Positions 1 to 9,193 of a stretch of DNA of 64,000 nt are shown here, piece after piece. Each line of letters opens with the position of its first letter. Within the stretch, counting starts at the first letter, position 1. Source of the DNA: an uncultured Alphaproteobacteria bacterium (lineage in GTDB: Bacteria > Pseudomonadota > Alphaproteobacteria > Rhizobiales > Xanthobacteraceae); assembly GCA_963703875.1 (NCBI GenBank), contig CAVPFZ010000016.1, positions 17,145 to 81,144 of the forward strand, in the 5' to 3' direction. Under the pieces are notes generated by a model. The model ran no database searches. It was given only the letters and a program-made list of their open reading frames with translations, and was not told where the DNA came from. Position numbers and translations under genes: made by a program.

Positions 1-39
1 AGTCACTCCAATCACAGCAGCGAATAAGCGCATAGACAT
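1..39 (-). CDS. 5' end of a probable secreted protein running off the left edge (MSMRLFAAVIGVT...)
   Basis: Minus-strand ATG at 39 preceded by GGAGAG; signal-peptide-like start; only 13 codons visible. Confidence 0.35.
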   Translation of the reverse strand, partial: MSMRLFAAVIGVT

Positions 40-284
40 TAGTCTCTCCATTGCCATAGTTGGAATTTTTCAGATGAAATCCGAGCCGATGAGACGATCT
101 CAGTTTTCTGGTCGCACGGAGATCAGATGCGAGTGGCAAGAGTGTCAGAAGGAAGCGTTACTTTGAGGCGATTGAAAAACTTGTTCATTCGCCATCGATA
201 ACGCCGGTAGAAAAGCTAGTATACGACAATTTTCGGCAACAGCTCTAAACATGTGTGGGTTCTCGCCGTGGAGGAGAATATCCT

Positions 285-313
285 TTGACATCAGAGTGCC
301 TGCAACCTAGCCT
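285..313 (+). promoter_or_regulatory. Sigma70-type promoter of graspetide precursor A
   Basis: TTGACA (285-290), 17 nt, TAGCCT (308-313); AGGGAG RBS at 351-356 before ATG 364. Confidence 0.6.
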
Positions 314-363
314 TTTATGTGCAATCGGTTTGGTTGTGCTGAGCGATTTGAGGGAGAAAGCGC

Positions 364-678
364 ATGAAGAATACAATTGGAATGTGCCGTTTAGTCATCC
401 GGCGTATTTTGGGCATTATCGGAGTGGCCGCAGCCGGTACCGGGTTGGTATCGATCGCAAGTAGCCAAGTTTTTGCGCATCAGTTTCTCCAAGAAATGGC
501 ACCAGGACCAAATCTTGGAATGGTGTACAGCTCGGAGCTGCAACTCATGGTCAAGCCTGGGACCACCGATCCGGTATATGGCAAAGCGTCACCGGGTTCG
601 CTCAAGGTGGCGGGGACCAATGCCGTGACGCAAGGGTCCGGACCTAACGGCCAAGGCCCGCACCACGACGACGACTGA
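364..678 (+). CDS. Graspetide precursor peptide A (104 aa) with signal-peptide-like N-terminus
   Basis: Directly upstream of ATP-grasp ligase; FAHQFL and YSSELQ leader-like motifs; C-terminal core GTNAVTQGSGPNGQGPHHDDD with Thr/Ser donors and terminal Asp acceptors; good RBS. Confidence 0.85.
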   Translation: MKNTIGMCRLVIRRILGIIGVAAAGTGLVSIASSQVFAHQFLQEMAPGPNLGMVYSSELQLMVKPGTTDPVYGKASPGSLKVAGTNAVTQGSGPNGQGPHHDDD

Positions 679-704
679 CGCTAACGTCGAAATCAATTGC
701 GGCG

Positions 705-751
705 ACGCCGGTTCGGAACCGGCGTGCGTCGCGACAATATAGTCGCGACGC
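705..751 (+). promoter_or_regulatory. Two tandem perfect hairpins between precursor A and ligase
   Basis: ACGCCGGTT-cgg-AACCGGCGT (705-725) then GCGTCGCGAC-aatata-GTCGCGACGC (726-751); no U-tract. Confidence 0.6.
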
Positions 752-766
752 CAAGGTGCGCTGCGT

Positions 767-1723
767 ATGAAGACAATTCTGCTCATCACTGAACAATTTG
801 ATCCGACCGCAGATAACTTAATTCAAGTTTTGCGGCAGCGCGGCTGCCCAGTGCTGCGATGGAATCTCGACCGATATCCGCAGGACTCGACGCTGACCTA
901 TCGCGTCACGGCGCATGAGTTCGGTGGCTCAATTGCCACCGAAGGCCGGCTCGTGCCCTTCGACCTCATTGGCAGCGTCTGGTACCGCGCCTCGCGTTGC
1001 CGTGGTTTTCCAGCCGGCCTTAATTCCGAAGAACTCGCGTTCGCCGCACGCGAGGCCGAAAGCGCGCTGAACTCCCTACCGCTGGTCACCGATTGGCGTT
1101 GGCTCAATGAACCGCGGCGCCATCGCGACGCAACGTGGAAGCCAGCGCAGCTTGCTATAGCGCGCCGACTGGGGCTGGCCATCCCGCGCACGGTCATCAC
1201 CAATGATCCGGCCGTGGTCACGGCTTTCCGCGAAGAATGTGGCGGCACGATCATCTTTAAATCGCTGTCGCAGACGTTGGGTCTCGAGCCAGGCAAAGCG
1301 GCCTTCACCGCCGTCGTAACGGACGAGGTGTTATCGTCACTAAGCCTTATCCGGCATACACCCGGAATATTCCAGGAGCTCGTTCCCAAGAATTTCGAAG
1401 TTCGGCTTACCGTTGTAGCGGACAAAATGTTCGCGGCGAAAATTATGTCGCAGCAAAATGAACTTACAAAGATCGACTGGCGAATTGCACCCCACGACGT
1501 AAAATACGAACCAGTTGAGTTACCAGCCGATATTCGCGACAAGGTTCGCGCCTTCATGGCCGAAACCGGACTGACCTACAGCTGCATTGATTTCATCGTC
1601 ACGCCCGAAGGCCGTCACATCTTCCTAGAAAGCAACCCACGCGGTCAGTATCTTTGGATTGAGCATTACACCGGTATGAAAATCACCGATGCGATCGCCG
1701 ACGCACTTATGGCGAAGTTATAG
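767..1723 (+). CDS. MvdC/MvdD-family ATP-grasp RiPP ligase 1
   Basis: N-terminal LLITEQFDPTAD, WLNEP..KPAQLAIARRLGLAIPRTVITN, IIFKSL, IFQELVPK.FEVR, IDWR, IDFIVTPEG..FLESNPRGQYLW. Confidence 0.92.
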   Translation: MKTILLITEQFDPTADNLIQVLRQRGCPVLRWNLDRYPQDSTLTYRVTAHEFGGSIATEGRLVPFDLIGSVWYRASRCRGFPAGLNSEELAFAAREAESALNSLPLVTDWRWLNEPRRHRDATWKPAQLAIARRLGLAIPRTVITNDPAVVTAFREECGGTIIFKSLSQTLGLEPGKAAFTAVVTDEVLSSLSLIRHTPGIFQELVPKNFEVRLTVVADKMFAAKIMSQQNELTKIDWRIAPHDVKYEPVELPADIRDKVRAFMAETGLTYSCIDFIVTPEGRHIFLESNPRGQYLWIEHYTGMKITDAIADALMAKL

Positions 1724-1775
1724 TCGGGTTTCGCGCTATGTTAGCGAACCCTGCTGACCAGCACTCGATGGCCCC

Positions 1776-2822
1776 TTGACCATAGATAACCACAGAAAAA
1801 ATGCTAGTCGCGGGTACGGGAGAACCGCCGCCGGGCTGAATCCAATAGCAATCGCCGCCGCGCCTTCGGGAGACTTTATCTACGTTGCAAATTGGGGTGC
1901 GCACGATATTTCCGCATACCGGATAGATCGCACCTCAGGCGCGCTTATGCCCATCGCGCGCTCACCTTTCAGAACCGGGCGGTGGCCGCATTCTCTCGCA
2001 ATCGCGCCTTCCGGCCGATTTTTATATTCGGCCAACGGCGACTCTAATGATGTATCGGCGTTCAGTATCGATCAAACAACGGGATCGCTTGAGCAGATGA
2101 AGGGCTCTCCCTACCCGGCGGGCAACCATCCAGAGTCCGTTACCATTTCTCCCTCTGGTGAATTTGCTTACGTATGTAACGGATTCGGCGGTAATATCTC
2201 TGGGTATCAAATCGACAGCTTAGGCGGCGGCTTGCGCGAGCTTCCCGGTTCGCCATTTCAATCGGGCGAAAAACCTTTGGCGCTGGCGGTCGAACCATCG
2301 GGCCGTTTTGCCTATGTTGCCAACCGCCGATCAGATATCTGGGCCTATCGGATTGACGCTGGAATTCTTCGGCCTGCCCCAGGATCTCCCTATCCAGCCG
2401 GGAAGGGGCCAACTGCAATCGCAATCCATCCGTCGGGGCAATTCATCTATTTTGCCAATTTCAAGTCCGACGACGTCGGCGCCTACCAAATCGACCGTAA
2501 CAGCGGCGCGCTCACGCCGTTGCCCGCCGCCCCTTATCGCAGTGAGGGCAAGGTGCCCATCGGCATCGCGGTCGATCCGAAGGGTGAATTCTTGTTCGTT
2601 GCCAATGGAGAATCCGACGGCATCGCGGTTTGCCGGCTTGCTCCCTCGACAGGCGTGCCCGTTGCAGTCGCAGGGAGTCCATTTCAGAGTGGCCGTATGC
2701 CGTGCGGCATAATAGCGGACCCGGGGGGCCGATTTCTGTACGCGACGAACTGGATTTCCAATGATGTGTCGTGCTGGCGGATTGAGCGATCAATAAGCGT
2801 ATTGATACCGGCGGGAAATTGA
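1776..2822 (+). CDS. Seven-bladed beta-propeller, lactonase (6-phosphogluconolactonase/YVTN-like) family
   Basis: Seven repeats of G-x-x-P-x-x-(I/L/V)-x-(I/V/A)-x-P-x-G-x-F-x-(Y/F)-x-x-N, linked by GSPY/FPAG; start codon uncertain (TTG). Confidence 0.8.
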   Translation: MTIDNHRKNASRGYGRTAAGLNPIAIAAAPSGDFIYVANWGAHDISAYRIDRTSGALMPIARSPFRTGRWPHSLAIAPSGRFLYSANGDSNDVSAFSIDQTTGSLEQMKGSPYPAGNHPESVTISPSGEFAYVCNGFGGNISGYQIDSLGGGLRELPGSPFQSGEKPLALAVEPSGRFAYVANRRSDIWAYRIDAGILRPAPGSPYPAGKGPTAIAIHPSGQFIYFANFKSDDVGAYQIDRNSGALTPLPAAPYRSEGKVPIGIAVDPKGEFLFVANGESDGIAVCRLAPSTGVPVAVAGSPFQSGRMPCGIIADPGGRFLYATNWISNDVSCWRIERSISVLIPAGN

Positions 2823-2866
2823 TCATCACCGGACAAGGCAAGCCGCGCGTCCCAAATGGTTCGGAT

Positions 2867-3829
2867 CTACCACCGCGGTTGCGGGCAACTCACGCACGGT
2901 GTGTTTGGGTTAATTTCGTAAACAATTTTCGCCATCAGACCTTCGGTCGAATCGGGATCCAGCCAGCCCCATTCACCGTTGTAGTTGGCCTCAAGAAACG
3001 TGTAGCGGTCGTCCTTGCGTAGAAAGTCGATCCTGGCAAAATGTTGACCCACTTCAGACATAAATCTGAAAATCCCAACTTCTAGTTCCTGGGGGATGCT
3101 GGCGCGCTTCCAGCCCCGATGTGAATAGACGAATGGTGCTCGACGCCAGTCGATCGTTTTGTCGACAAAACTTGTGCGATCGAGCTCGAATGCAAACAGT
3201 TGATCGCGGACCACCGCAACCGTGACATCATGTGTGGCATCTATGAAATCAGTGAGAAACCATGGTTGCGCCGGGTCAAGGTCCCCCTCATCTACTTTCG
3301 AACTATAAAATCCGACGCCATCGGCGTATTTGAAATTGAAGCTTTTGCAAACCGAAATGGTTCCGGGGCGCAAACGGTCGCCCCGATTGAGGACGAAACT
3401 GTAAGGCGTGATTTCGAAATATTTTGGTGCGACTCGCAGTTGCTGTAGCTTTCCCGACCGCAAGGTGCCAAGCGGTTGGCTCAGGACGATTTTTCCCTGG
3501 TGCCAGAAGATATTGAAAAGATCGGCCCATGCAGCATAAACCTCTTCTTCAGCGTAACGCTCGAGGTCGGTCATTTTCGTTTGCGGAAATATCACGGAGC
3601 CGCGCATCGACGAACGTCGATAAACCTTCGCGATGTCGGAATCGGTGACTTTGCGGCCGGTCGGGTCGGAAATCTCTATTCCCGCCGATGAAAAGTAAAA
3701 TGCGTAGTCACGCCACAGATCGGTGTTGTAGCGAAACAATCGATCACTGCCTAATTGGGCTACCAGCAAATCCGCAAGATAGTCGATCGAGTTCGTAATC
3801 AACAAAGTGACTTGCGGCATTGGCGTCAT
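2867..3829 (-). CDS. Divergent ATP-grasp RiPP ligase 2
   Basis: LLITNSIDYLAD, KLQQL, VCKS, IDWRR, IDFLRKDDRYTFLEANYNGEWGWLD; adjacent to precursor B. Confidence 0.85.
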   Translation of the reverse strand: MTPMPQVTLLITNSIDYLADLLVAQLGSDRLFRYNTDLWRDYAFYFSSAGIEISDPTGRKVTDSDIAKVYRRSSMRGSVIFPQTKMTDLERYAEEEVYAAWADLFNIFWHQGKIVLSQPLGTLRSGKLQQLRVAPKYFEITPYSFVLNRGDRLRPGTISVCKSFNFKYADGVGFYSSKVDEGDLDPAQPWFLTDFIDATHDVTVAVVRDQLFAFELDRTSFVDKTIDWRRAPFVYSHRGWKRASIPQELEVGIFRFMSEVGQHFARIDFLRKDDRYTFLEANYNGEWGWLDPDSTEGLMAKIVYEINPNTPCVSCPQPRW

Positions 3830-3851
3830 TAATTTTTTGTCCGTCTATCGT

Positions 3852-3896
3852 CTGACAAAAACAAACTTCCCGCCACGGCAGGGCCGAAGCGGGAAG
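3852..3896 (-). terminator. Intrinsic terminator between precursor B and ligase 2
   Basis: CTTCCCGC...GCGGGAAG stem (3866-3896) with inner CGGC/GCCG pairs, followed on minus strand by TTTGTTTTTG. Confidence 0.65.
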
Positions 3897-3936
3897 CGGT
3901 TGAACTCAGATCGCAAAAACCAAACAAAGACCGAGA

Positions 3937-4167
3937 CTACTCGTCCTTTTCTCCATCGAAGCCCGTGCTGCTGGTCGGCGCACCGGTCGTCATCATCAGC
4001 TGACGAATTTTCTCGCTCTCAGTCCAGCGGCGGGTCTGCGTGACGTAGTCATACGAGCAATTCGGCATTTCTGAGCGCCACAAGAAAGTTTCCTCCGGCT
4101 TCGCGTTGATGAGGTCAGCCGGTGTCAACTTCGCCTTTGCGCCAGTTTGAATTTGGATGTGGCTCAT
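3937..4167 (-). CDS. Graspetide precursor peptide B (76 aa)
   Basis: RBS GAGGGG; TFLWR..EMP..YDYVTQ leader-like motif; core TTGAPTSSTGFDGEKDE; upstream of ligase 2. Confidence 0.85.
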   Translation of the reverse strand: MSHIQIQTGAKAKLTPADLINAKPEETFLWRSEMPNCSYDYVTQTRRWTESEKIRQLMMTTGAPTSSTGFDGEKDE

Positions 4168-4207
4168 AAATATGGTCCCCTCTTCCCAGAATATGAATTA
4201 GTACACC

Positions 4208-4237
4208 AAGCTAGCTCTGGAGTTCCCTCCCTGTCAA
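4208..4237 (-). promoter_or_regulatory. Sigma70-type promoter of precursor B
   Basis: Minus strand TTGACA (4237-4232), 18 nt, TAGCTT (4213-4208). Confidence 0.5.
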
Positions 4238-4322
4238 GGCAACCCGATTGCTTAAGCCTGGGAAAACTCTAGTATTATGAGCGGCTTAGGGTGATTTACG
4301 TGAAGAGCCAACGGCGCGACTG

Positions 4323-6101
4323 TTGAAAATCCAACACTGGCCGAGTGCCTTCCGGTCAAAAGCGAGTTTGCAAATGGACGGCATTCACCTGAGCAGGTGG
4401 TGTCTGCGACAGATTTTGCCGGCCTTGATCATGGGCTCGATCCTTTTGCTATTGGCGACGGCGGCGAATGTATCGGCGGCCCTCCTGTTTCAACCACTAT
4501 TCGACAGGGGCGTTCTCGGCGAAAAGGGCTCGATACTGATTTCGGTTATTGGTTTGCAGATTGGGCTTTTTCTCGCACGTGGGATATTGGCTGGCTTCGC
4601 ATTCGATCTTTTCGCGCGGGCAAGTGCGCGAATTGGCCAAAATCTTACCCTGAAACTTTTCGATCACCTCCAGATCCATTCATTGTCTTATTTCCTCGAT
4701 CATCCGCAGGCGCGCCTGCTCCAGTTGCTTCGTAACGATGTAGTGGTGCTCGAAGTGAACCTTGGACAAACACTGGGCCAAGGAATCATAGCCACATTGC
4801 AAACAGCGCTGACGTTGGTCGTGATCGTGATGTGGGAGCCGCGGCTTGCGCTCCTTTGCGTCGTCGGCCTTGGCGTCGGCGCGGCGCTCATTTGGCTTGC
4901 ATCCCGCCTTACGAATCGGGCGCTCGCAAACGAAATTGGGGCCAATGAACTTGTTGCAGAGCATCTACTGCTGATGCTCAGCCTGCGCGGATTTTTTCTT
5001 CGCGCCAGTGCATCGCCTGGTTGGGGACGGACGCGCCTGCAGCAATTGTTGGCGCGCTATCGCAATCTGCTCGTCCGCCGACGCGTGCTGCCGAATTGGG
5101 TGATGGTCGCGGGCGAAGGCGTCAGCACCGCCACCTATTTCTGTTTCTATCTTACAGGGATCTATCTCGTCGCCGGTGGCGGCACGACGATAGGCTCGTT
5201 AATCGCAATGGCCGCGCTCGTGAGTTTTCTCATCGGATCCATGAATCAGCTCGCGCCGACCTATGTTGGACTAGGTGACGCCTGGCTACGTCTCGGCCGC
5301 ATGGAAAAAGAACTATCAACAGCTCCATCGCGGCGCGAAATCGCGGGCGCTCTGGACCCACAGACACTACACGGCGCGTTCGCACTGGAGCACGTTACCG
5401 TCCGTTATCGCGACGCGGTTGCCCTGAACGACGTATCGGTCGCTATCCACCCGGGTAGAATTACCGCCGTTATCGGAAGCAGTGGTGCGGGAAAAACCAC
5501 GCTGACGCTGCTTCTGCTCGGGCTGATAGAGCCAGAGGCCGGCTTAGTAACTGTCGACGGGGTTGCGGTCGAGAAATATCGGCGCGGAGCATTGTGGCGC
5601 CATATTGGATATGTGCCGCAAGAACCCGTCTTGTTCCGCGGTTCATCGCGGGAAAACATTATGGTCGGAAGACCGATTTCGGATTCAGAGATTATTACCG
5701 CCAGCACCAAGGTCGGTACTCATGATCGGCTTGCTGCGGCGGCGGGCGGATACGACGCCGATCTCGGCGAGAATGGCTTTCGCCTTTCGGGCGGCGAGCG
5801 ACAGCGCATCAGTTTCGCGCGTGTGTTGGCCGGCCGACCAGCCGTGTTAGTCCTCGACGAGCCGACCGCCAATCTCGACGCCTTAACGGAGGCCTTAATT
5901 CGTAAGACGGTTATTGATCAACGCGACGCCGGTCGAACGATCATCGTCGTTTCGCATAACCCGGAAATGGTGGCCATCGCTGATGATGTAATCTGGCTTG
6001 ATAAGGGAAGCCTCGTCTGCAGCGGGTCAACACAAGACCCCAAAATACAAGCGCGGCTGGTTGACCGATATTTCACTCAAAGAGACGTGCGCCCTTGTTG
6101 A
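4323..6101 (+). CDS. ABC exporter, fused TMD-NBD, no peptidase domain
   Basis: Hydrophobic TMD, Walker A GSSGAGKT, LSGGERQR signature, Walker B VLVLDEPT, VSH; start may be ATG 4374. Confidence 0.92.
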   Translation: MKIQHWPSAFRSKASLQMDGIHLSRWCLRQILPALIMGSILLLLATAANVSAALLFQPLFDRGVLGEKGSILISVIGLQIGLFLARGILAGFAFDLFARASARIGQNLTLKLFDHLQIHSLSYFLDHPQARLLQLLRNDVVVLEVNLGQTLGQGIIATLQTALTLVVIVMWEPRLALLCVVGLGVGAALIWLASRLTNRALANEIGANELVAEHLLLMLSLRGFFLRASASPGWGRTRLQQLLARYRNLLVRRRVLPNWVMVAGEGVSTATYFCFYLTGIYLVAGGGTTIGSLIAMAALVSFLIGSMNQLAPTYVGLGDAWLRLGRMEKELSTAPSRREIAGALDPQTLHGAFALEHVTVRYRDAVALNDVSVAIHPGRITAVIGSSGAGKTTLTLLLLGLIEPEAGLVTVDGVAVEKYRRGALWRHIGYVPQEPVLFRGSSRENIMVGRPISDSEIITASTKVGTHDRLAAAAGGYDADLGENGFRLSGGERQRISFARVLAGRPAVLVLDEPTANLDALTEALIRKTVIDQRDAGRTIIVVSHNPEMVAIADDVIWLDKGSLVCSGSTQDPKIQARLVDRYFTQRDVRPC

Positions 6102-6113
6102 ATTCTATAAATC

Positions 6114-6144
6114 TCAAACGCAGCCGCGGTGGTAACCGCGCTGC
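6114..6144 (+). repeat. GC-rich hairpin element copy 1 (terminator-like, between convergent genes)
   Basis: TCAAACGCAGCCGCGGTGGTAACCGCGCTGC; 27/31 identical to reverse complement of 7720-7750. Confidence 0.6.
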
Positions 6145-6186
6145 CTCGCGATGTGGAAACAAAGTCCGATAGAGATTAGAAGGACA

Positions 6187-6834
6187 CTAGTTCTGGATCC
6201 CGTCACCTCGTAATAGTTTAAGTGTATCCGAGCTTATCGAGGTTTGACTTTTTCTATGAATTTCAACTCGCTGATCGGCAGACAGGAAATCGCTCTGCGG
6301 CAAGTGTCTGCTTTCCAAAAACCGTCTTATTGCCCTGCGCGTACTTGGCCCAAACTTGCCGTCTTTAGCGCCATTAAAAAAGCCAAATGCAGTCAGCCCC
6401 TGTTGAATATCGGCGCGTGCTTCGGGAGGGAGATTGGCTTCGGCCAATGCGTCACCTTGTAATAGAGCAAAAAATTCCGTTGCCCGTTGATGAATCGCGT
6501 CGAGAATGCATTCCCTATCGCTGGGCGCAAAGTCTATTTGATCTTTCTTTAATCCGCATTCCCTAGCCAATGCCTTAAACCATTTCCTCTGAGCTTGATC
6601 GAATACCTTTCTTTTATTTTCCGCTATCGAGAAATACCGCGCCCAAAATGCAGAAGTAAGGCCCCAGTCCGCTTCCGCTCCCTCTTGGTCATTGCAGAGG
6701 ATCCGTCGCACGCTATCTCTGGCATATTTACAATTGAAGGTCGGATTGGCGGAAAGTGGTTGGCTGTACGCCGAATATGTTATTATGGCCAATGTTGAGC
6801 CAACGAGTGCGATGAAAACATTTGCGCGCCTCAT
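6187..6834 (-). CDS. Secreted LprI-like (PxFxC) domain plus peptidoglycan-binding domain protein
   Basis: Signal peptide; PTFNC...ILC, QRKW...C...C; C-terminal IQQGLTAFGF..DGKFGPSTRRAIRRF. Confidence 0.75.
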   Translation of the reverse strand: MRRANVFIALVGSTLAIITYSAYSQPLSANPTFNCKYARDSVRRILCNDQEGAEADWGLTSAFWARYFSIAENKRKVFDQAQRKWFKALARECGLKKDQIDFAPSDRECILDAIHQRATEFFALLQGDALAEANLPPEARADIQQGLTAFGFFNGAKDGKFGPSTRRAIRRFLESRHLPQSDFLSADQRVEIHRKSQTSISSDTLKLLRGDGIQN

Positions 6835-6973
6835 GGTAACATGCCCCTAGGGTGTATTTCAAATACTCATAAAATATTTTCTTTACGGCGTCGCTTTCCA
6901 GAACGCGATGTCCGCTAAACATTCACGACAATTCTCCCTGTTGCCTGTTACCAACTTTCATCGGCCGCTGCAA

Positions 6974-7258
6974 TTATTTGCAGCTAACAGCAACACAGGC
7001 AGAGTTCGAGCTGTCCTGGCTTGGGCACGAAACGCAACGCATCTTGCCTGCGTCGTTCACGCATATGCCAAAATATGAGCCGTTAGGCTGCTTGTTCCAG
7101 TTGCAGGAATTGGCTGCCTGCGCGGCGGCCGTCAAAGACGCCGAAGCCCAAAGACACATGCCCAACGCAAGTAAATATTCTTTGAAGACATTCTTAGAGG
7201 TACAAGCTGCTGCGTGCATCGCTGTCTCCTCGGTGGTGGGTTGGAGTTCTGCACTCAC
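6974..7258 (-). CDS. Small secreted Cys-rich protein
   Basis: LALGMCLWASASLTAAAQAA signal; 6 Cys in ~43-aa mature part; true start may be internal. Confidence 0.6.
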   Translation of the reverse strand: MSAELQPTTEETAMHAAACTSKNVFKEYLLALGMCLWASASLTAAAQAANSCNWNKQPNGSYFGICVNDAGKMRCVSCPSQDSSNSACVAVSCK

Positions 7259-7266
7259 AATCAGTC

Positions 7267-7656
7267 CTAAAATTTTGTAGCTGGCGCATTACCAACAGTG
7301 CAGGCAAAATTGTGTATGCTGTTACTTTCAGTTACACCGCTCAAATAATGCCATTCATCGTGGATACTTAAATTCCCTGACGTTCGATTTAGATCATATA
7401 TTTGGACTGCTGTGCCGGGGTTAGATGGAGGGCATTCAGTCCCGCACACCAGGCTGTGCTCCCAATGCATCGAAGTTGCGTTGATTCTCGCTGGGTAGTT
7501 GTTAACGGACCTGTTCGTTAGATCAACGGTTAAGGTCTCAGCATCGGTATTGCTTGCGCTTGGGCATTTGAGAAATATCGTGTTTGCGAAGGCCGGGAAT
7601 GAAGCGGCCACTATCGCTATTGTAGCACAAAAAACTACGACCTTAATCTTGAGCAT
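7267..7656 (-). CDS. Secreted hypothetical protein (4 Cys in mature part)
   Basis: RBS GGAGGGG; signal peptide ending FPAFA. Confidence 0.7.
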   Translation of the reverse strand: MLKIKVVVFCATIAIVAASFPAFANTIFLKCPSASNTDAETLTVDLTNRSVNNYPARINATSMHWEHSLVCGTECPPSNPGTAVQIYDLNRTSGNLSIHDEWHYLSGVTESNSIHNFACTVGNAPATKF

Positions 7657-7710
7657 TGCACCCCTCCTTGCCTGGTAGTTCGTTCATTGAGAAAATTTCT
7701 CGGCCTTATG

Positions 7711-7750
7711 AGAAAAAGCGCAGCGCGGTTATCGCCGCGACTGCGCTTGA
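7711..7750 (-). terminator. Hairpin element copy 2, intrinsic terminator of 7792-8067
   Basis: AAGCGCAG-CGCGG...CCGCG-A-CTGCGCTT stem followed on minus strand by TTTTT. Confidence 0.65.
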
Positions 7751-7791
7751 GGCGTTGGTCAGACTAAGTCCGCTAGAAAGTTAGTAGGACG

Positions 7792-8067
7792 CTAATTGCA
7801 AGTTTGACCATCACAGTGCCCATTTGCGTCCCAATGGCTGCAGCGACAGTGTCCGAATTGAGCGATGCGGCTGTGATTTGATGTTTGAGTAGTGGGGCAG
7901 AATGCTGCCGAAGCCGGATTTCCAGCGGCGACGATGGCCGAACCTGTTGATGCGAGCGATACCCCGCAGCTCAGGGATAGAAACAGCACTGAATATGCGA
8001 CGAGACGAATAGAGTGGGTAGTCATGAAGTCCCCCTTCGCTGCCCAATGATCGAACGTGGTCATCAC
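7792..8067 (-). CDS. Small secreted protein with Cys/His-rich C-terminus
   Basis: Signal-like VAYSVLFLSLSCGVSLA; tail HCRCSHWDANGHCDGQTCN; start probably internal Met (MTTHS). Confidence 0.55.
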   Translation of the reverse strand: MMTTFDHWAAKGDFMTTHSIRLVAYSVLFLSLSCGVSLASTGSAIVAAGNPASAAFCPTTQTSNHSRIAQFGHCRCSHWDANGHCDGQTCN

Positions 8068-8374
8068 GGACGATCAGTGGGACGTAGCGAGAATGAGGGG
8101 ACTAACGATAAGGAGCAAGTATTAAATTGCTCACGCCGTACCGTGCACGCCATGAATCGGAATGCCGTAGCGTTTCTGGATCGATTTCTGTGACAACCTT
8201 TGGCAAGAGGCCATGGCGACCGACAGCATCAAAGCAGAGCGGCGAACACCAACGTTAAACCGATCATCCCACGCATGATTTTCCCTCCCCTCATGATCTT
8301 CCTACCCCTCATGCCGACAGAGCAACTATAGGCAGCTCTTGTGCAATTCGGTCAGCCGTACCCGTGGCAGACTG

Positions 8375-9193
8375 CTAGGGTCTGGACTCACAATTTGATC
8401 CAGTAGAGTGCACTGATGAGCATGGTCGCGGCAAGAAAATTGCGAGCGAGCTTATCGTAGCGGGTAGCGATACGCCGCCAATCCTTGATGCGGCAGAAGA
8501 AGTTTTCGATTTTGCGTCGCCGCCGGTAGAAGCGCTTGGGGCAATAGGCTTTCCGGGTGGCGTTGCTACGATTGGGGATGACAGGCAAGGCGCCTTCGTC
8601 CCTGATCTGTTGTCGCGCTTTTTCGCTGTCGTAGACCTTGTCAGCCGTGACAGCCAGCGGCGGTCGTGGCGTATTCAGTATCTCTTCGACGACTTGGCTG
8701 TCATGGACCTGTCCGCCCGTCACCAAGAAGCTTAGCGGCCGGCCCTTGCTGTCGACAACCGCGTGGATTTTCGTGGTTCGGCCGCCCCGGCTGATACCGA
8801 TCGCCTGATTTTTCTCCCCCCTTTTGCGCCGCTCGCCGCACGGTGAGCCTTCACAATAGTGCTATCGATCAGATACAGGCCGTCACGCCAATTGGTCGAA
8901 TACACGCTTCCAAATACCGCGGCGAGACCACCGGTTGAAGCGATTATAAGCCGTCGTGTAGGGGCCATAGCGTGCCGGCAGATCCCGCCATGGCATTCCG
9001 GTCCGCAGCACGTAAAAGATCGCATTCATGATCTTGCGATCGTCCACTCGCGCGCTCTTTCGGCTCCGCGGCAGCAGCGCTTCGAGCAGCGCCCAATCCT
9101 CATCGCTCAGATCAAATCGCATGACCCACCTCCGCGCACGGTGAATCATGTTCGCTCAAACTATTCAATCATCTATCTGGGTACAGACCCTAG
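8375..9193 (-). mobile_element. IS5-family (IS427-group-like) insertion sequence, disrupted transposase
   Basis: Ends CTAGGGTCTGGACTCA and (rc) CTAGGGTCTGTACCCA, 14/16 match incl. flanking CTAG; orfA LRTGMPWRDLP..YG; AAAAGGGGGG slippage site; orfB IDST, ADKVYD, RRKIENFFCRIKDWRRIATRYDK; extra frameshift with TGA at 8883. Confidence 0.9.

Follow-up and report, generated by a model that had tools for sequence, protein, structure and literature searches.

The known class to be considered here is that of the graspetides, peptides made on ribosomes and modified after their translation (RiPPs) in which an ATP-grasp ligase acts on a leader-guided precursor. The locus described here lies near the start of a 64,000-nucleotide stretch of DNA (the window) from an uncultured member of the Xanthobacteraceae (Alphaproteobacteria, Rhizobiales) and contains two precursor genes (preA and preB), two ATP-grasp ligase genes (lig1 and lig2), and genes for a beta-propeller protein and an ATP-binding cassette (ABC) exporter. 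It is probably an island that was acquired horizontally and that carries, back to back, two independent modules for graspetides (omega-ester peptides), with preA and lig1 forming module A and with preB, lig2, the propeller, and the exporter forming module B. The gene families, the pairing of precursors with ligases, the conservation and spacing of motifs, the genes that travel together, and the accessory status of the island are observed directly.

The described systems nearest to module A are the actinobacterial SAV_5884-type systems. In the printed account of Carter et al. (2026, PMC13097080), the SAV_5884 and PF14404 systems are graspetide groups 13 and 11 and include prunipeptin and the graspimiditides. 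The best family model for lig1 is TIGR04187, the SAV_5884-type ATP-grasp peptide maturase (290 bits; E value, 1e-86), relatives of preA give subthreshold matches to TIGR04186 and PF14404, and the Y-D-x3-Q box and T...T...D..D core of preA resemble those of the "cluster 2" precursors (Makarova 2022). Module A differs from these systems in that lig1 remains under the 350-bit cutoff of TIGR04187, preA itself has no match to TIGR04186, and no methyltransferase of the TIGR04188 or protein isoaspartate methyltransferase (PIMT) type is present in or around the island. Its hosts are Proteobacteria and Nitrospirota, and its precursors carry an extension of about 35 residues, resembling a twin-arginine translocation (Tat) signal, that is missing from the actinobacterial precursors and from the nearest outgroups. 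The first-pass annotation of this DNA, made from the sequence alone, had reported the absence of an aspartimide methyltransferase; none was found in positions 1 to 9000 of the window or in the 5 kb upstream, nor was any other methyltransferase or a protease gene.

Both modules share with the microviridin systems (MdnA/B/C and MvdC/D; graspetide group 1) an ATP-grasp fold with a pre-ATP-grasp domain and the occurrence of two ATP-grasp genes per locus. Among solved structures, MdnC, MdnB, and AMdnB match lig1 and lig2 best, and the FAxQFL box of preA resembles PFFARFL. In contrast to the microviridin systems, there is no TxKYPSD core or conserved Lys, the two ligases serve two precursors rather than one, and lig2 lies outside the clade of sampled microviridin-type ligases. 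The statement that neither core matches microviridin or plesiocin holds for both preA (AVTQGSGPNGQGPHHDDD) and preB (TTGAPTSSTGFDGEKDE), and the repeated TTxxxxEE motif of plesiocin-type (group 2) peptides occurs in neither precursor. In keeping with the first view of the locus as a candidate for an undescribed system, neither pair could be placed in a characterized graspetide group, insofar as the printed groups 25, 27 to 30, and 32 to 43 allow this to be checked; the precursors printed for these groups show no likeness to preA or preB, and groups 1 to 24, 26, and 31 lie outside the comparison (Carter et al. 2026, PMC13097080). It is possible that either module has been catalogued earlier within groups 1 to 24 or within the full graspetide set. 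The part of the supplementary precursor set of Makarova 2022 that was searched contained no peptide strings of the preA or preB type.

Two ligases with separate precursors

The lig1 protein scores 37 bits against PF21068 (cutoff, 27) and, in addition to TIGR04187, matches the hidden Markov models (HMMs) of MvdD (198 bits) and MvdC (193 bits); its RimK score is 33.7 bits, compared with 290 bits for the graspetide model, and housekeeping ligases of the RimK/GshB type were therefore rejected as an explanation. The best PDB match is MdnC (5ig9; E value, 2.5e-41). Several hundred relatives are named as members of the "MvdC/MvdD family" or as "RimK-type ligase-like," and in a maximum-likelihood (ML) tree built from 94 representative ligases, 20 representatives make up the lig1 family, a clade (Shimodaira-Hasegawa-like approximate likelihood ratio test [SH-aLRT] value, 98) nested among other graspetide ligases. 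The NCBIfam matches of lig2 are weak, lie in its C-terminal part, and are to the MvdC, SAV_5884, and MvdD models (56 to 65 bits; MvdC is best, at about 65). A profile built from 22 relatives of lig2 matches AMdnB (7m4s) over its full length (positions 3 to 304; E value, 2.5e-30) and also aligns full length with MdnB, CdnC, and MdnC, the E values ranging from 2.5e-30 to 8e-21. On the basis of the HMM and solved-structure matches, lig1 and lig2 are confirmed as predicted graspetide-type ligases.

The existence of two distinct precursor-ligase pairs, as first annotated, is borne out by the HMM and structure matches of the ligases and by the finding that each ligase has its own precursor. The search for precursors beside homologous ligases that had been suggested with the annotation was successful, yielding a precursor in all 81 lig2 loci that have upstream sequence and 29 distinct homologs of preA. 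The pairs had been called unrelated, which is too strong: lig1 and lig2 are distant homologs with 28% identity across about 100 C-terminal residues. A leader pattern common to preA and preB, also noted at that stage, is real and exceeds chance when seen in the context of the families. It consists of two boxes, the first of the F-A/L-x-x-F-L type (FAHQFL in preA and TFLWR in preB) and the second reading Y-[DSN]-x3-Q, which is present in 81/81 lig2-family precursors and 29/29 preA homologs.

Microviridin clusters contain two ATP-grasp genes (Makarova 2022), and a similar logic would have both ligases of the window act in turn on one precursor, forming esters and amides, while the other open reading frame (ORF) is no substrate at all. 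Such an arrangement is highly improbable here, as each ligase retains its own precursor when it occurs alone, the two ligases fall in separate clades and share only about 25% identity, and neither the preA-type nor the preB-type cores contain a conserved Lys.

Module B ligase family and its precursors

The lig2 protein belongs to a widespread family missed by the database models. Its 117 metagenomic homologs are without a Pfam domain, and all of the named ones are "hypothetical." When one genome of each GTDB species was scanned (185,579 species genomes), 272 lig2-family loci were recovered, whose hosts include Alphaproteobacteria, Negativicutes, Bacillota, Syntrophaceae, Geobacter, Acidobacteriota, Actinomycetota, Planctomycetota, Nitrospirota, and Omnitrophota, as well as a large Akkermansia/Verrucomicrobiota clade. 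In the 94-ligase tree the family forms one clade (SH-aLRT value, 100) on a long stem, separate from everything else that was sampled, the microviridin-type ligases included.

The precursor preB has the leader KLTPADLV...ETFLWRSEM...SYDYVTQTRRWTESE and the core MMTTGAPTSSTGFDGEKDE. A small ORF with the motif Y-[DNSH]-[WYHF]-x2-Q, on the same strand and ending at most 500 nucleotides (nt) upstream of the ligase, is found in 81 of 82 lig2-family loci; the sole exception has no upstream sequence, and hence the motif is present in 81/81 testable cases. Among these loci, the type of precursor varies with the identity of the ligase to lig2. At 57% identity or more, the accompanying precursor is clearly preB-like across phyla and has the form KLTPADLV..KPDE.FLWR.EM..C.YDY..QTR.W.ESE...[ML]M[ST]TG[AS]P.SST.FDGE.[DE]E, and the core of this B1 clade is conserved across seven phyla. 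Where the ligases are 37 to 45% identical to lig2, the core is reduced to K-S-[SD]-T-x-F-D-[GK]-E or to P-T-S-T-x-F-D-G-D-R-T. The invariant kernel of preB-type cores is thus T-x-F-D-G-[ED]. Cores outside the Verrucomicrobia are built around S-[SD]-T-x-F-D-G-E, and that of the Akkermansia clade reads ...VDDWxLA.

Several loci of the family deserve separate mention. Loci L053 to L088 of the comparison set, which comprises about 170 related loci, contain a large lig2-family clade with 32 to 35% identity from metagenome-assembled genomes (MAGs), obtained from animal guts, of Akkermansia and other Verrucomicrobiota (for example, L059:7699-8933 and L060:7669-8951). The conserved precursor lies directly upstream and reads M[IT]T..IA..[ST]PF[MV][VA]A...Y[NS]W..Q...VDDW.LA. 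This appears to be a graspetide family that has escaped annotation in a prominent genus of the gut. Another lig2 subclade (L105:2846-4102 and L116:3292-4555) is paired with module A and has precursors that end in ...C[DN]T......PDCRFD after a PYDW..QQ box. In an Acidobacteriota MAG (L018), the preB homolog at 7709-7903 ends early, at ...MMSTGAPTE, and only a propeller fragment remains at about 8913-9110; together with the shortened precursor, this may represent a decaying copy of module B.

Module A as a stand-alone cassette with a signal-like extension

In each of five long contigs that were inspected singly, the lig1 homolog and a gene for a precursor of 102 to 129 amino acids (aa) form a two-gene cassette amid housekeeping genes, with no transporter, propeller, or second ligase nearby (5/5). 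A lig1-centered metagenome scan gave the same picture of solo cassettes in most of the further loci with several kilobases of flanking sequence, and module A is found without ABC exporter, propeller, or lig2 in L089 to L093, L099, L101, L107, L111, and L118. Module A is therefore mostly a stand-alone two-gene cassette without a transporter.

The precursor itself is well conserved in its architecture. Homologs of preA lie directly 5' of every lig1 homolog that is at least 45% identical and has upstream sequence, and 29 distinct homologs were collected, each directly upstream of its ligase. Residues 1 to 36 of preA resemble a Tat signal, with K2, R9, and R13-R14 followed by a 22-residue uncharged stretch rich in Gly and Ala; residues 37 to 43 (FAHQFLQ) form a PFFARFL-like ligase box, residues 55 to 60 (YSSELQ) form the second leader box, and the C-terminal core follows. 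In the family the first box reads F-A-[HKR]-Q-F-[LV], the second reads Y-[DS]-P-x-L-Q-x-M-V-x-P-x-T-x-x-P-[IV]-[YF], the spacing between the two is exactly 18 residues in 29/29 homologs, and a variable linker separates the second box from the core. FAxQFL is taken to correspond to PFFARFL, the ligase-binding box of the microviridins (Makarova 2022). Two types of core occur, that of the window (T-V-T-x-G-x-G-P-N-G-x-G-P-[HT]-x-D-x-D) and a Cys-rich type (T-[VI]-T-[AS]-G-C-x-x-C-P-K-x-D-D).

The N-terminal segment is an add-on specific to the precursors of the lig1 family, because the precursors of the nearest outgroup ligases (33 to 39% identity) lack a hydrophobic extension and open with the first box itself. 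This is seen in the unsignaled precursors of L122 (IPFALQF...SYSLELQLRVNPGT, also given as MTTEVMEGIPFALQF...SYSLELQLRVNPGTDQPTYQV) and L121 (PLGYLY...HYDPDAQTWV...TRTSGSKCGDCVQDDACF); a Pfam scan of the nearest unsignaled sister precursors matched no family. The nearest outgroup of the lig1 family consists of actinobacterial-type ligases (L121:294-1589, L123:6677-7948, L125:5256-6509, and L126:367-1627) whose precursors, unsignaled and without a Pfam match, follow the pattern PLGYLY...HYDPDAQTWV...TRTSG..CGDCV.DDAC[FS]; many relatives of preA have a core resembling this Cys-rich one.

Product A probably leaves the cytoplasm by means of its own Tat-type signal, to judge from the features of the extension. 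An RR pair is present in 23/29 homologs within the consensus [ST]-x-R-R-R-x-L-[KR]-x-F-G-L-G-A-A-G-T, the n-region is positively charged (median net charge, +4; n = 29), and the uncharged Gly/Ala-rich stretch has a median length of 20 residues and a mean Kyte-Doolittle (KD) hydropathy of 1.58 (n = 29). When ten preA homologs were scanned with HMMs, one exceeded the cutoff of the TIGR01409 Tat-signal model, seven gave subthreshold matches to the Tat region of TIGR02811, and five gave subthreshold matches to TIGR04186 (GRASP_targ), of which the best reached 18.4 bits against a cutoff of 25. TatC is encoded in this genome. The Tat system is post-translational and carries folded cargo, whereas Sec (general secretion) is co-translational, and Tat would suit preA better than Sec because a cytoplasmic ATP-dependent ligase must act before export. 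A Tat-like signal of its own would also fit the lack of a transporter in module A.

Three observations speak against a Tat signal and for the alternative that the preA N terminus is a membrane anchor, a Sec signal, or a long leader recognized by lig1, in which case product A would be membrane tethered or cytoplasmic. The preA of the window, with IRRILG, matched neither the Tat models nor TIGR04186 in the HMM scan; 6/29 homologs are without RR; and what looks like a cleavage site, V-F-A, overlaps the FAxQFL ligase box, which is conserved, so that the hydrophobic segment might stay uncleaved as a membrane anchor or might act as a Sec signal. The same overlap suggests that a bound ligase could keep the signal covered up to the end of the modification. 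This alternative is nevertheless rather unlikely, since a consensus such as RRxhLxhFGLGAAGT, moderate hydrophobicity, and a basic c-region are what Tat signals typically show, the existence of unsignaled sister precursors implies that the segment is dispensable for recognition by the ligase, and the stand-alone cassettes are without any transporter.

A literature search for graspetides with Tat or signal peptides, or with Akkermansia and other phyla, yielded nothing relevant, and the co-occurrence tables of Carter et al. (2026, PMC13097080), as far as they were available, list no PF10282, lactonase, or Tat HMMs. The supporting information of the same paper (Fig. S12) prints a group 35 representative precursor from Nostoc that begins with MKITSSTSTRALALVMGLAIASSIISTVAKAES, a Sec-like sequence on which the authors do not comment there, and signal-bearing graspetide precursors may thus not be wholly unprecedented. 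Outside the graspetides, the bufferins, which are modified by multinuclear nonheme iron-dependent oxidative enzymes (MNIOs), are the established case of RiPPs with Sec signal peptides (bioRxiv 10.1101/2024.03.18.585515; PMC11626156). They resemble module A in being RiPP precursors with a general-secretion signal and periplasmic action, and some relatives of preA are Cys rich (CxxCPKCDDxC). They differ from it in the modifying enzyme (MNIO versus ATP-grasp) and the signal (Sec versus Tat-like), and no metal-related genes occur here; a role of product A in metal binding would be speculation.

The propeller and the ABC exporter belong to module B

The propeller protein matches PF10282 with 145.9 bits (cutoff, 21.7; E value, 2.3e-42). 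Its AlphaFold2 (AF2) model (predicted local distance difference test [pLDDT] score, 93.7) has seven four-stranded blades, and the top Foldseek matches are putative 6-phosphogluconolactonases of the Pgl/YbhE type, the gluconolactonase PpgL, and an archaeal YVTN S-layer propeller, with template modeling (TM) scores of 0.70 to 0.76. No signal peptide was found in it, and the model is consistent with a cytoplasmic lactonase-fold protein. A homolog search returned 1,283 superfamily matches and added no co-occurrence data, and the propeller is best seen as a locally recruited member of the very large lactonase-propeller superfamily. A conserved nonligase protein that lacks an evident catalytic role and strictly co-occurs with the synthetase in one lineage has a parallel in the rosaritide proteins MirB and MirC as reported in the accessible part of Carter et al. 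(2026, PMC13097080). The partner in that system is a homolog of PpiC-type peptidyl-prolyl isomerases (PPIases), and here it would be a lactonase-fold propeller with a putative partner role.

The exporter is 592 aa long from a TTG start, although this start is uncertain and may instead be the ATG at 4374, and contains the ABC_membrane (PF00664) and ABC_tran (PF00005) domains. No C39 peptidase domain was detected with Pfam or NCBIfam, and the alignment to models of peptidase-containing ABC transporters (PCATs) begins past their peptidase region; the best NCBIfam models, LssB, HlyB, and MsbA-like, are all far under their cutoffs.

The first-pass annotation regarded the propeller and the export route as common to both pairs. 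The related loci, surveyed by tblastn with the six window proteins, do not agree with this. The propeller is convergent with, and directly downstream of, lig2 in 9/9 alphaproteobacterial B1 loci, six of which are without module A. Orthologs of the exporter with 65 to 79% identity lie beside preB-lig2 in L006, L009, L011, L012, and L021, and some ABC exporter is present within 3 kb in 24/48 nonverrucomicrobial lig2 loci. In L009 to L012, L014, and L021, the preB-lig2 loci keep the propeller/exporter features and have no preA or lig1 within 8 kb. Both accessory genes therefore belong to pair B, because both travel with preB-lig2 in loci that have no preA-lig1.

These data also bear on the possibility that the six genes form one integrated cluster: pair A, or both pairs, would then make use of the propeller, and the one ABC exporter would release both products. 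Such a cluster would account for the position of the propeller in the window, 52 nt after lig1 on the same strand, for the single transporter gene in the window, and for the arrangement in L046 and L054, where all of the genes of both modules and the ABC exporter are co-directional. It is nonetheless improbable, given that the propeller and exporter remain with preB-lig2 where module A is missing, that module A stands alone without a transporter in most loci with long flanks, that preA has a signal-like N terminus of its own, and that the position of module A around the module B core varies among close relatives. The preB>lig2><propeller core stays constant, and module A occurs in three places next to it. 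In the window it lies behind the propeller's start and on the strand of the propeller, in L006 it is found behind the ABC gene, and in L013 it is divergent from the propeller. Because module A sits elsewhere in L006 and L013, the propeller appears to follow lig1 in the window only through the insertion of module A at that point.

Combinations of the modules and status of the island

Module A is found beside lig2 modules of several subclades. It adjoins B1-type modules in the window, L006, and L013; B2-type modules with the core KSDT.[FH]D[KG]E in L038 and L046; and other lig2 subclades in L054 (core ...STTFWDGEKG) and in L105 and L116 (core ...PDCRFD). The lig1 proteins of L038 and L116 are 90% identical and their lig2 partners 35%; between the window and L013, lig2 is 72% identical and lig1 49%. 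The locus L009, whose lig2 is 90% identical to that of the window, has no module A. The twin layout is accordingly read from these comparisons as recurrent, recently shuffled, and combinatorial, and as neither an ancestral unit nor a requirement.

Two other origins were considered and rejected. The first, that one pair arose by a recent duplication, fails because the lig1 and lig2 proteins of the window are only 25 to 28% identical and fall in separate clades. The second, that the modules co-diverged from an ancestral twin cluster, was discarded on account of the incongruent identity matrices of lig1 and lig2.

It is also conceivable that the two peptides cooperate, for example with a periplasmic product A as the immunity, helper, or regulatory partner of an exported product B, and that their linkage is selected. 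Module A adjoins at least four lig2 subclades (B1, B2, the L054 type, and the L105/L116 type) and was never seen beside another type of ligase in the loci examined, the modules seem to form one operon in two loci, and chance adjacency is negligible with 272 lig2 loci in 185,579 species genomes. Cooperation is still unlikely in view of the roughly 85 to 90% of the occurrences of each module that are solo and of L009, where module A is absent despite the close similarity of lig2; accessory RiPP genes, moreover, often pile up in islands without functional coupling.

The accessory status of the island is evident from its composition and distribution. The GC content of the cluster genes is 51 to 57%, compared with 62.7% for the genome, and lig2 falls below the first percentile of long ORFs. 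Neither lig1 nor lig2 is present in 40 related genomes (24 of the same genus and 16 of the same order). An intact DDE transposase gene lies about 2 kb upstream of the window (L005:14961-16364, plus strand), and fragments of an IS5-like transposase lie downstream of the island (window 8388-9149, minus strand), so that the two bracket the low-GC island.

A number of observations detract from the interpretation of the locus as an island of two independent graspetide modules. The lig2 protein has no Pfam match and misses the cutoffs of all curated graspetide-ligase HMMs by far, and its activity is a prediction. No catalytic residues could be assigned in the propeller, which is absent from lig2 loci outside the Alphaproteobacteria. 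The two modules are co-located in about 10 to 15% of the loci of either family, which hints at some functional link and is left unexplained if the modules are taken as purely independent, and the cluster sequence occurs only in soil-metagenome DNA runs and in no RNA runs.

Gene layout and RNA elements

All six genes are present as ORFs at the places and on the strands first assigned to them (ORF map of window positions 1 to 9000; Table 1). Position 285, given earlier as the start of the cluster, is no gene boundary and falls inside the 5' untranslated region of preA, which begins at 364.

Table 1. Features of the two-module locus, in window coordinates
Feature	Coordinates	Strand	Description	Evidence
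preA	364-678	+	Precursor of module A, 104 aa	ORF; GGGAG Shine-Dalgarno sequence 8 nt upstream
Hairpin pair	698-752	+	Two adjacent GC-rich hairpins in the preA-lig1 spacer	Folding
lig1	767-1723	+	318-aa graspetide-type ATP-grasp ligase (predicted), module A	HMM, PDB match, tree
Propeller	1776-2822	+	Lactonase-fold (YVTN/Pgl-type) seven-bladed beta-propeller, module B	PF10282, AF2, Foldseek
lig2	2867-3829	-	320-aa divergent graspetide-type ATP-grasp ligase (predicted), module B	Family profile, tree
Terminator-like hairpin and U-tract	3869-3900	-	Between preB and lig2	Scan and folding
preB	3937-4167	-	Precursor of module B, 76 aa	ORF; GAGGGG Shine-Dalgarno sequence
ABC exporter	4323-6101	+	Fused transmembrane and nucleotide-binding domains, divergent from preB, module B	PF00664, PF00005

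The spacers between precursor and ligase are predicted to be structured in both modules. The preA-lig1 spacer (676-770) folds at -48.6 kcal/mol (z score, -4.3), and none of 200 shuffled sequences folded as well; no U-tract follows the hairpin pair, which is possibly an attenuator or an element of RNA stability. The hairpin between preB and lig2 (CUUCCCGC...GCGGGAAG followed by UUUGUUUUUG) folds at -41.1 kcal/mol (z score, -3.6). A hairpin with a U-tract after the precursor gene is the usual device by which RiPP clusters obtain an excess of precursor over enzyme, and this one is likely a partial terminator that sets the ratio of precursor to enzyme.

The flanks of the island contain further small genes. 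Just past the ABC gene, a 215-aa secreted protein with a PG_binding_1 domain is encoded on the minus strand (6187-6834; GC content, 48%) and was not found in the related loci examined. Four small ORFs with signal peptides and several Cys residues, belonging to no family, lie on both flanks (window 6974-8067 and L005:16947-17195, all on the minus strand).

Proposed biosynthesis and significance

The ester chemistry, the number of rings, the export routes, the removal of the leader, and the role of the propeller in the following scheme are all predicted. In module B, lig2 would recognize the TFLWR and YDYxxQ boxes when binding the leader of preB and, with ATP, would close rings by ester bonds that join side chains of Ser/Thr and Asp/Glu in the C-terminal core ...STGAPTSSTGFDGEKDE, which contains the invariant kernel T-x-F-D-G-E. 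A leaky terminator after preB would hold the precursor above the level of the enzyme, the peptidase-less ABC exporter would carry the product over the inner membrane, and the propeller would be a lineage-specific accessory that could serve as a partner protein or, in editing or immunity, as an esterase. In module A, lig1 would bind the FAHQFL and YSSELQ boxes, always 18 residues apart, and would close about two ester rings within the T-x-T...D-x-D core. Once finished and folded, the product would exit through its own N-terminal Tat-type signal, and module A would therefore need no dedicated transporter.

Taken together, module A as a class of Tat-exported graspetides and the lig2 clade as a new, phylum-spanning graspetide group form a proposal that must be regarded as tentative. 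If it is true, preA would be cyclized in the cytoplasm and then exported in folded form through the twin-arginine pathway, which would explain the lack of a transporter in module A cassettes. Because the FAxQFL box abuts the c-region of the signal, the bound ligase would mask the signal until modification is done, a hold-back or proofreading step analogous to that of the Tat chaperones TorD and DmsD. The product would be a periplasmic graspetide, possibly a protease inhibitor or a metal binder given the Cys- or His-rich cores. The lig2 group would extend from soil Alphaproteobacteria to gut Akkermansia, with the ring motif T-x-F-D-G-E, and in one lineage a lactonase-fold protein would be dedicated to it as a partner or as an editing enzyme.

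Graspetides are a fast-growing class of RiPPs that is mined for protease inhibitors and for enzymes that form macrocycles. The lig2 clade escapes the Pfam and NCBIfam models, and HMM-based censuses that rely on such models could thus miss it; the S-[SD]-T-x-F-D-G-E core of the family outside the Verrucomicrobia is compact and conserved. The Tat-like signal of module A, together with its lack of a transporter, suggests an export route that has not been described for graspetides, and the repeated combination of module A with differing lig2-type modules may serve as a natural example of the modular assembly of RiPP islands.

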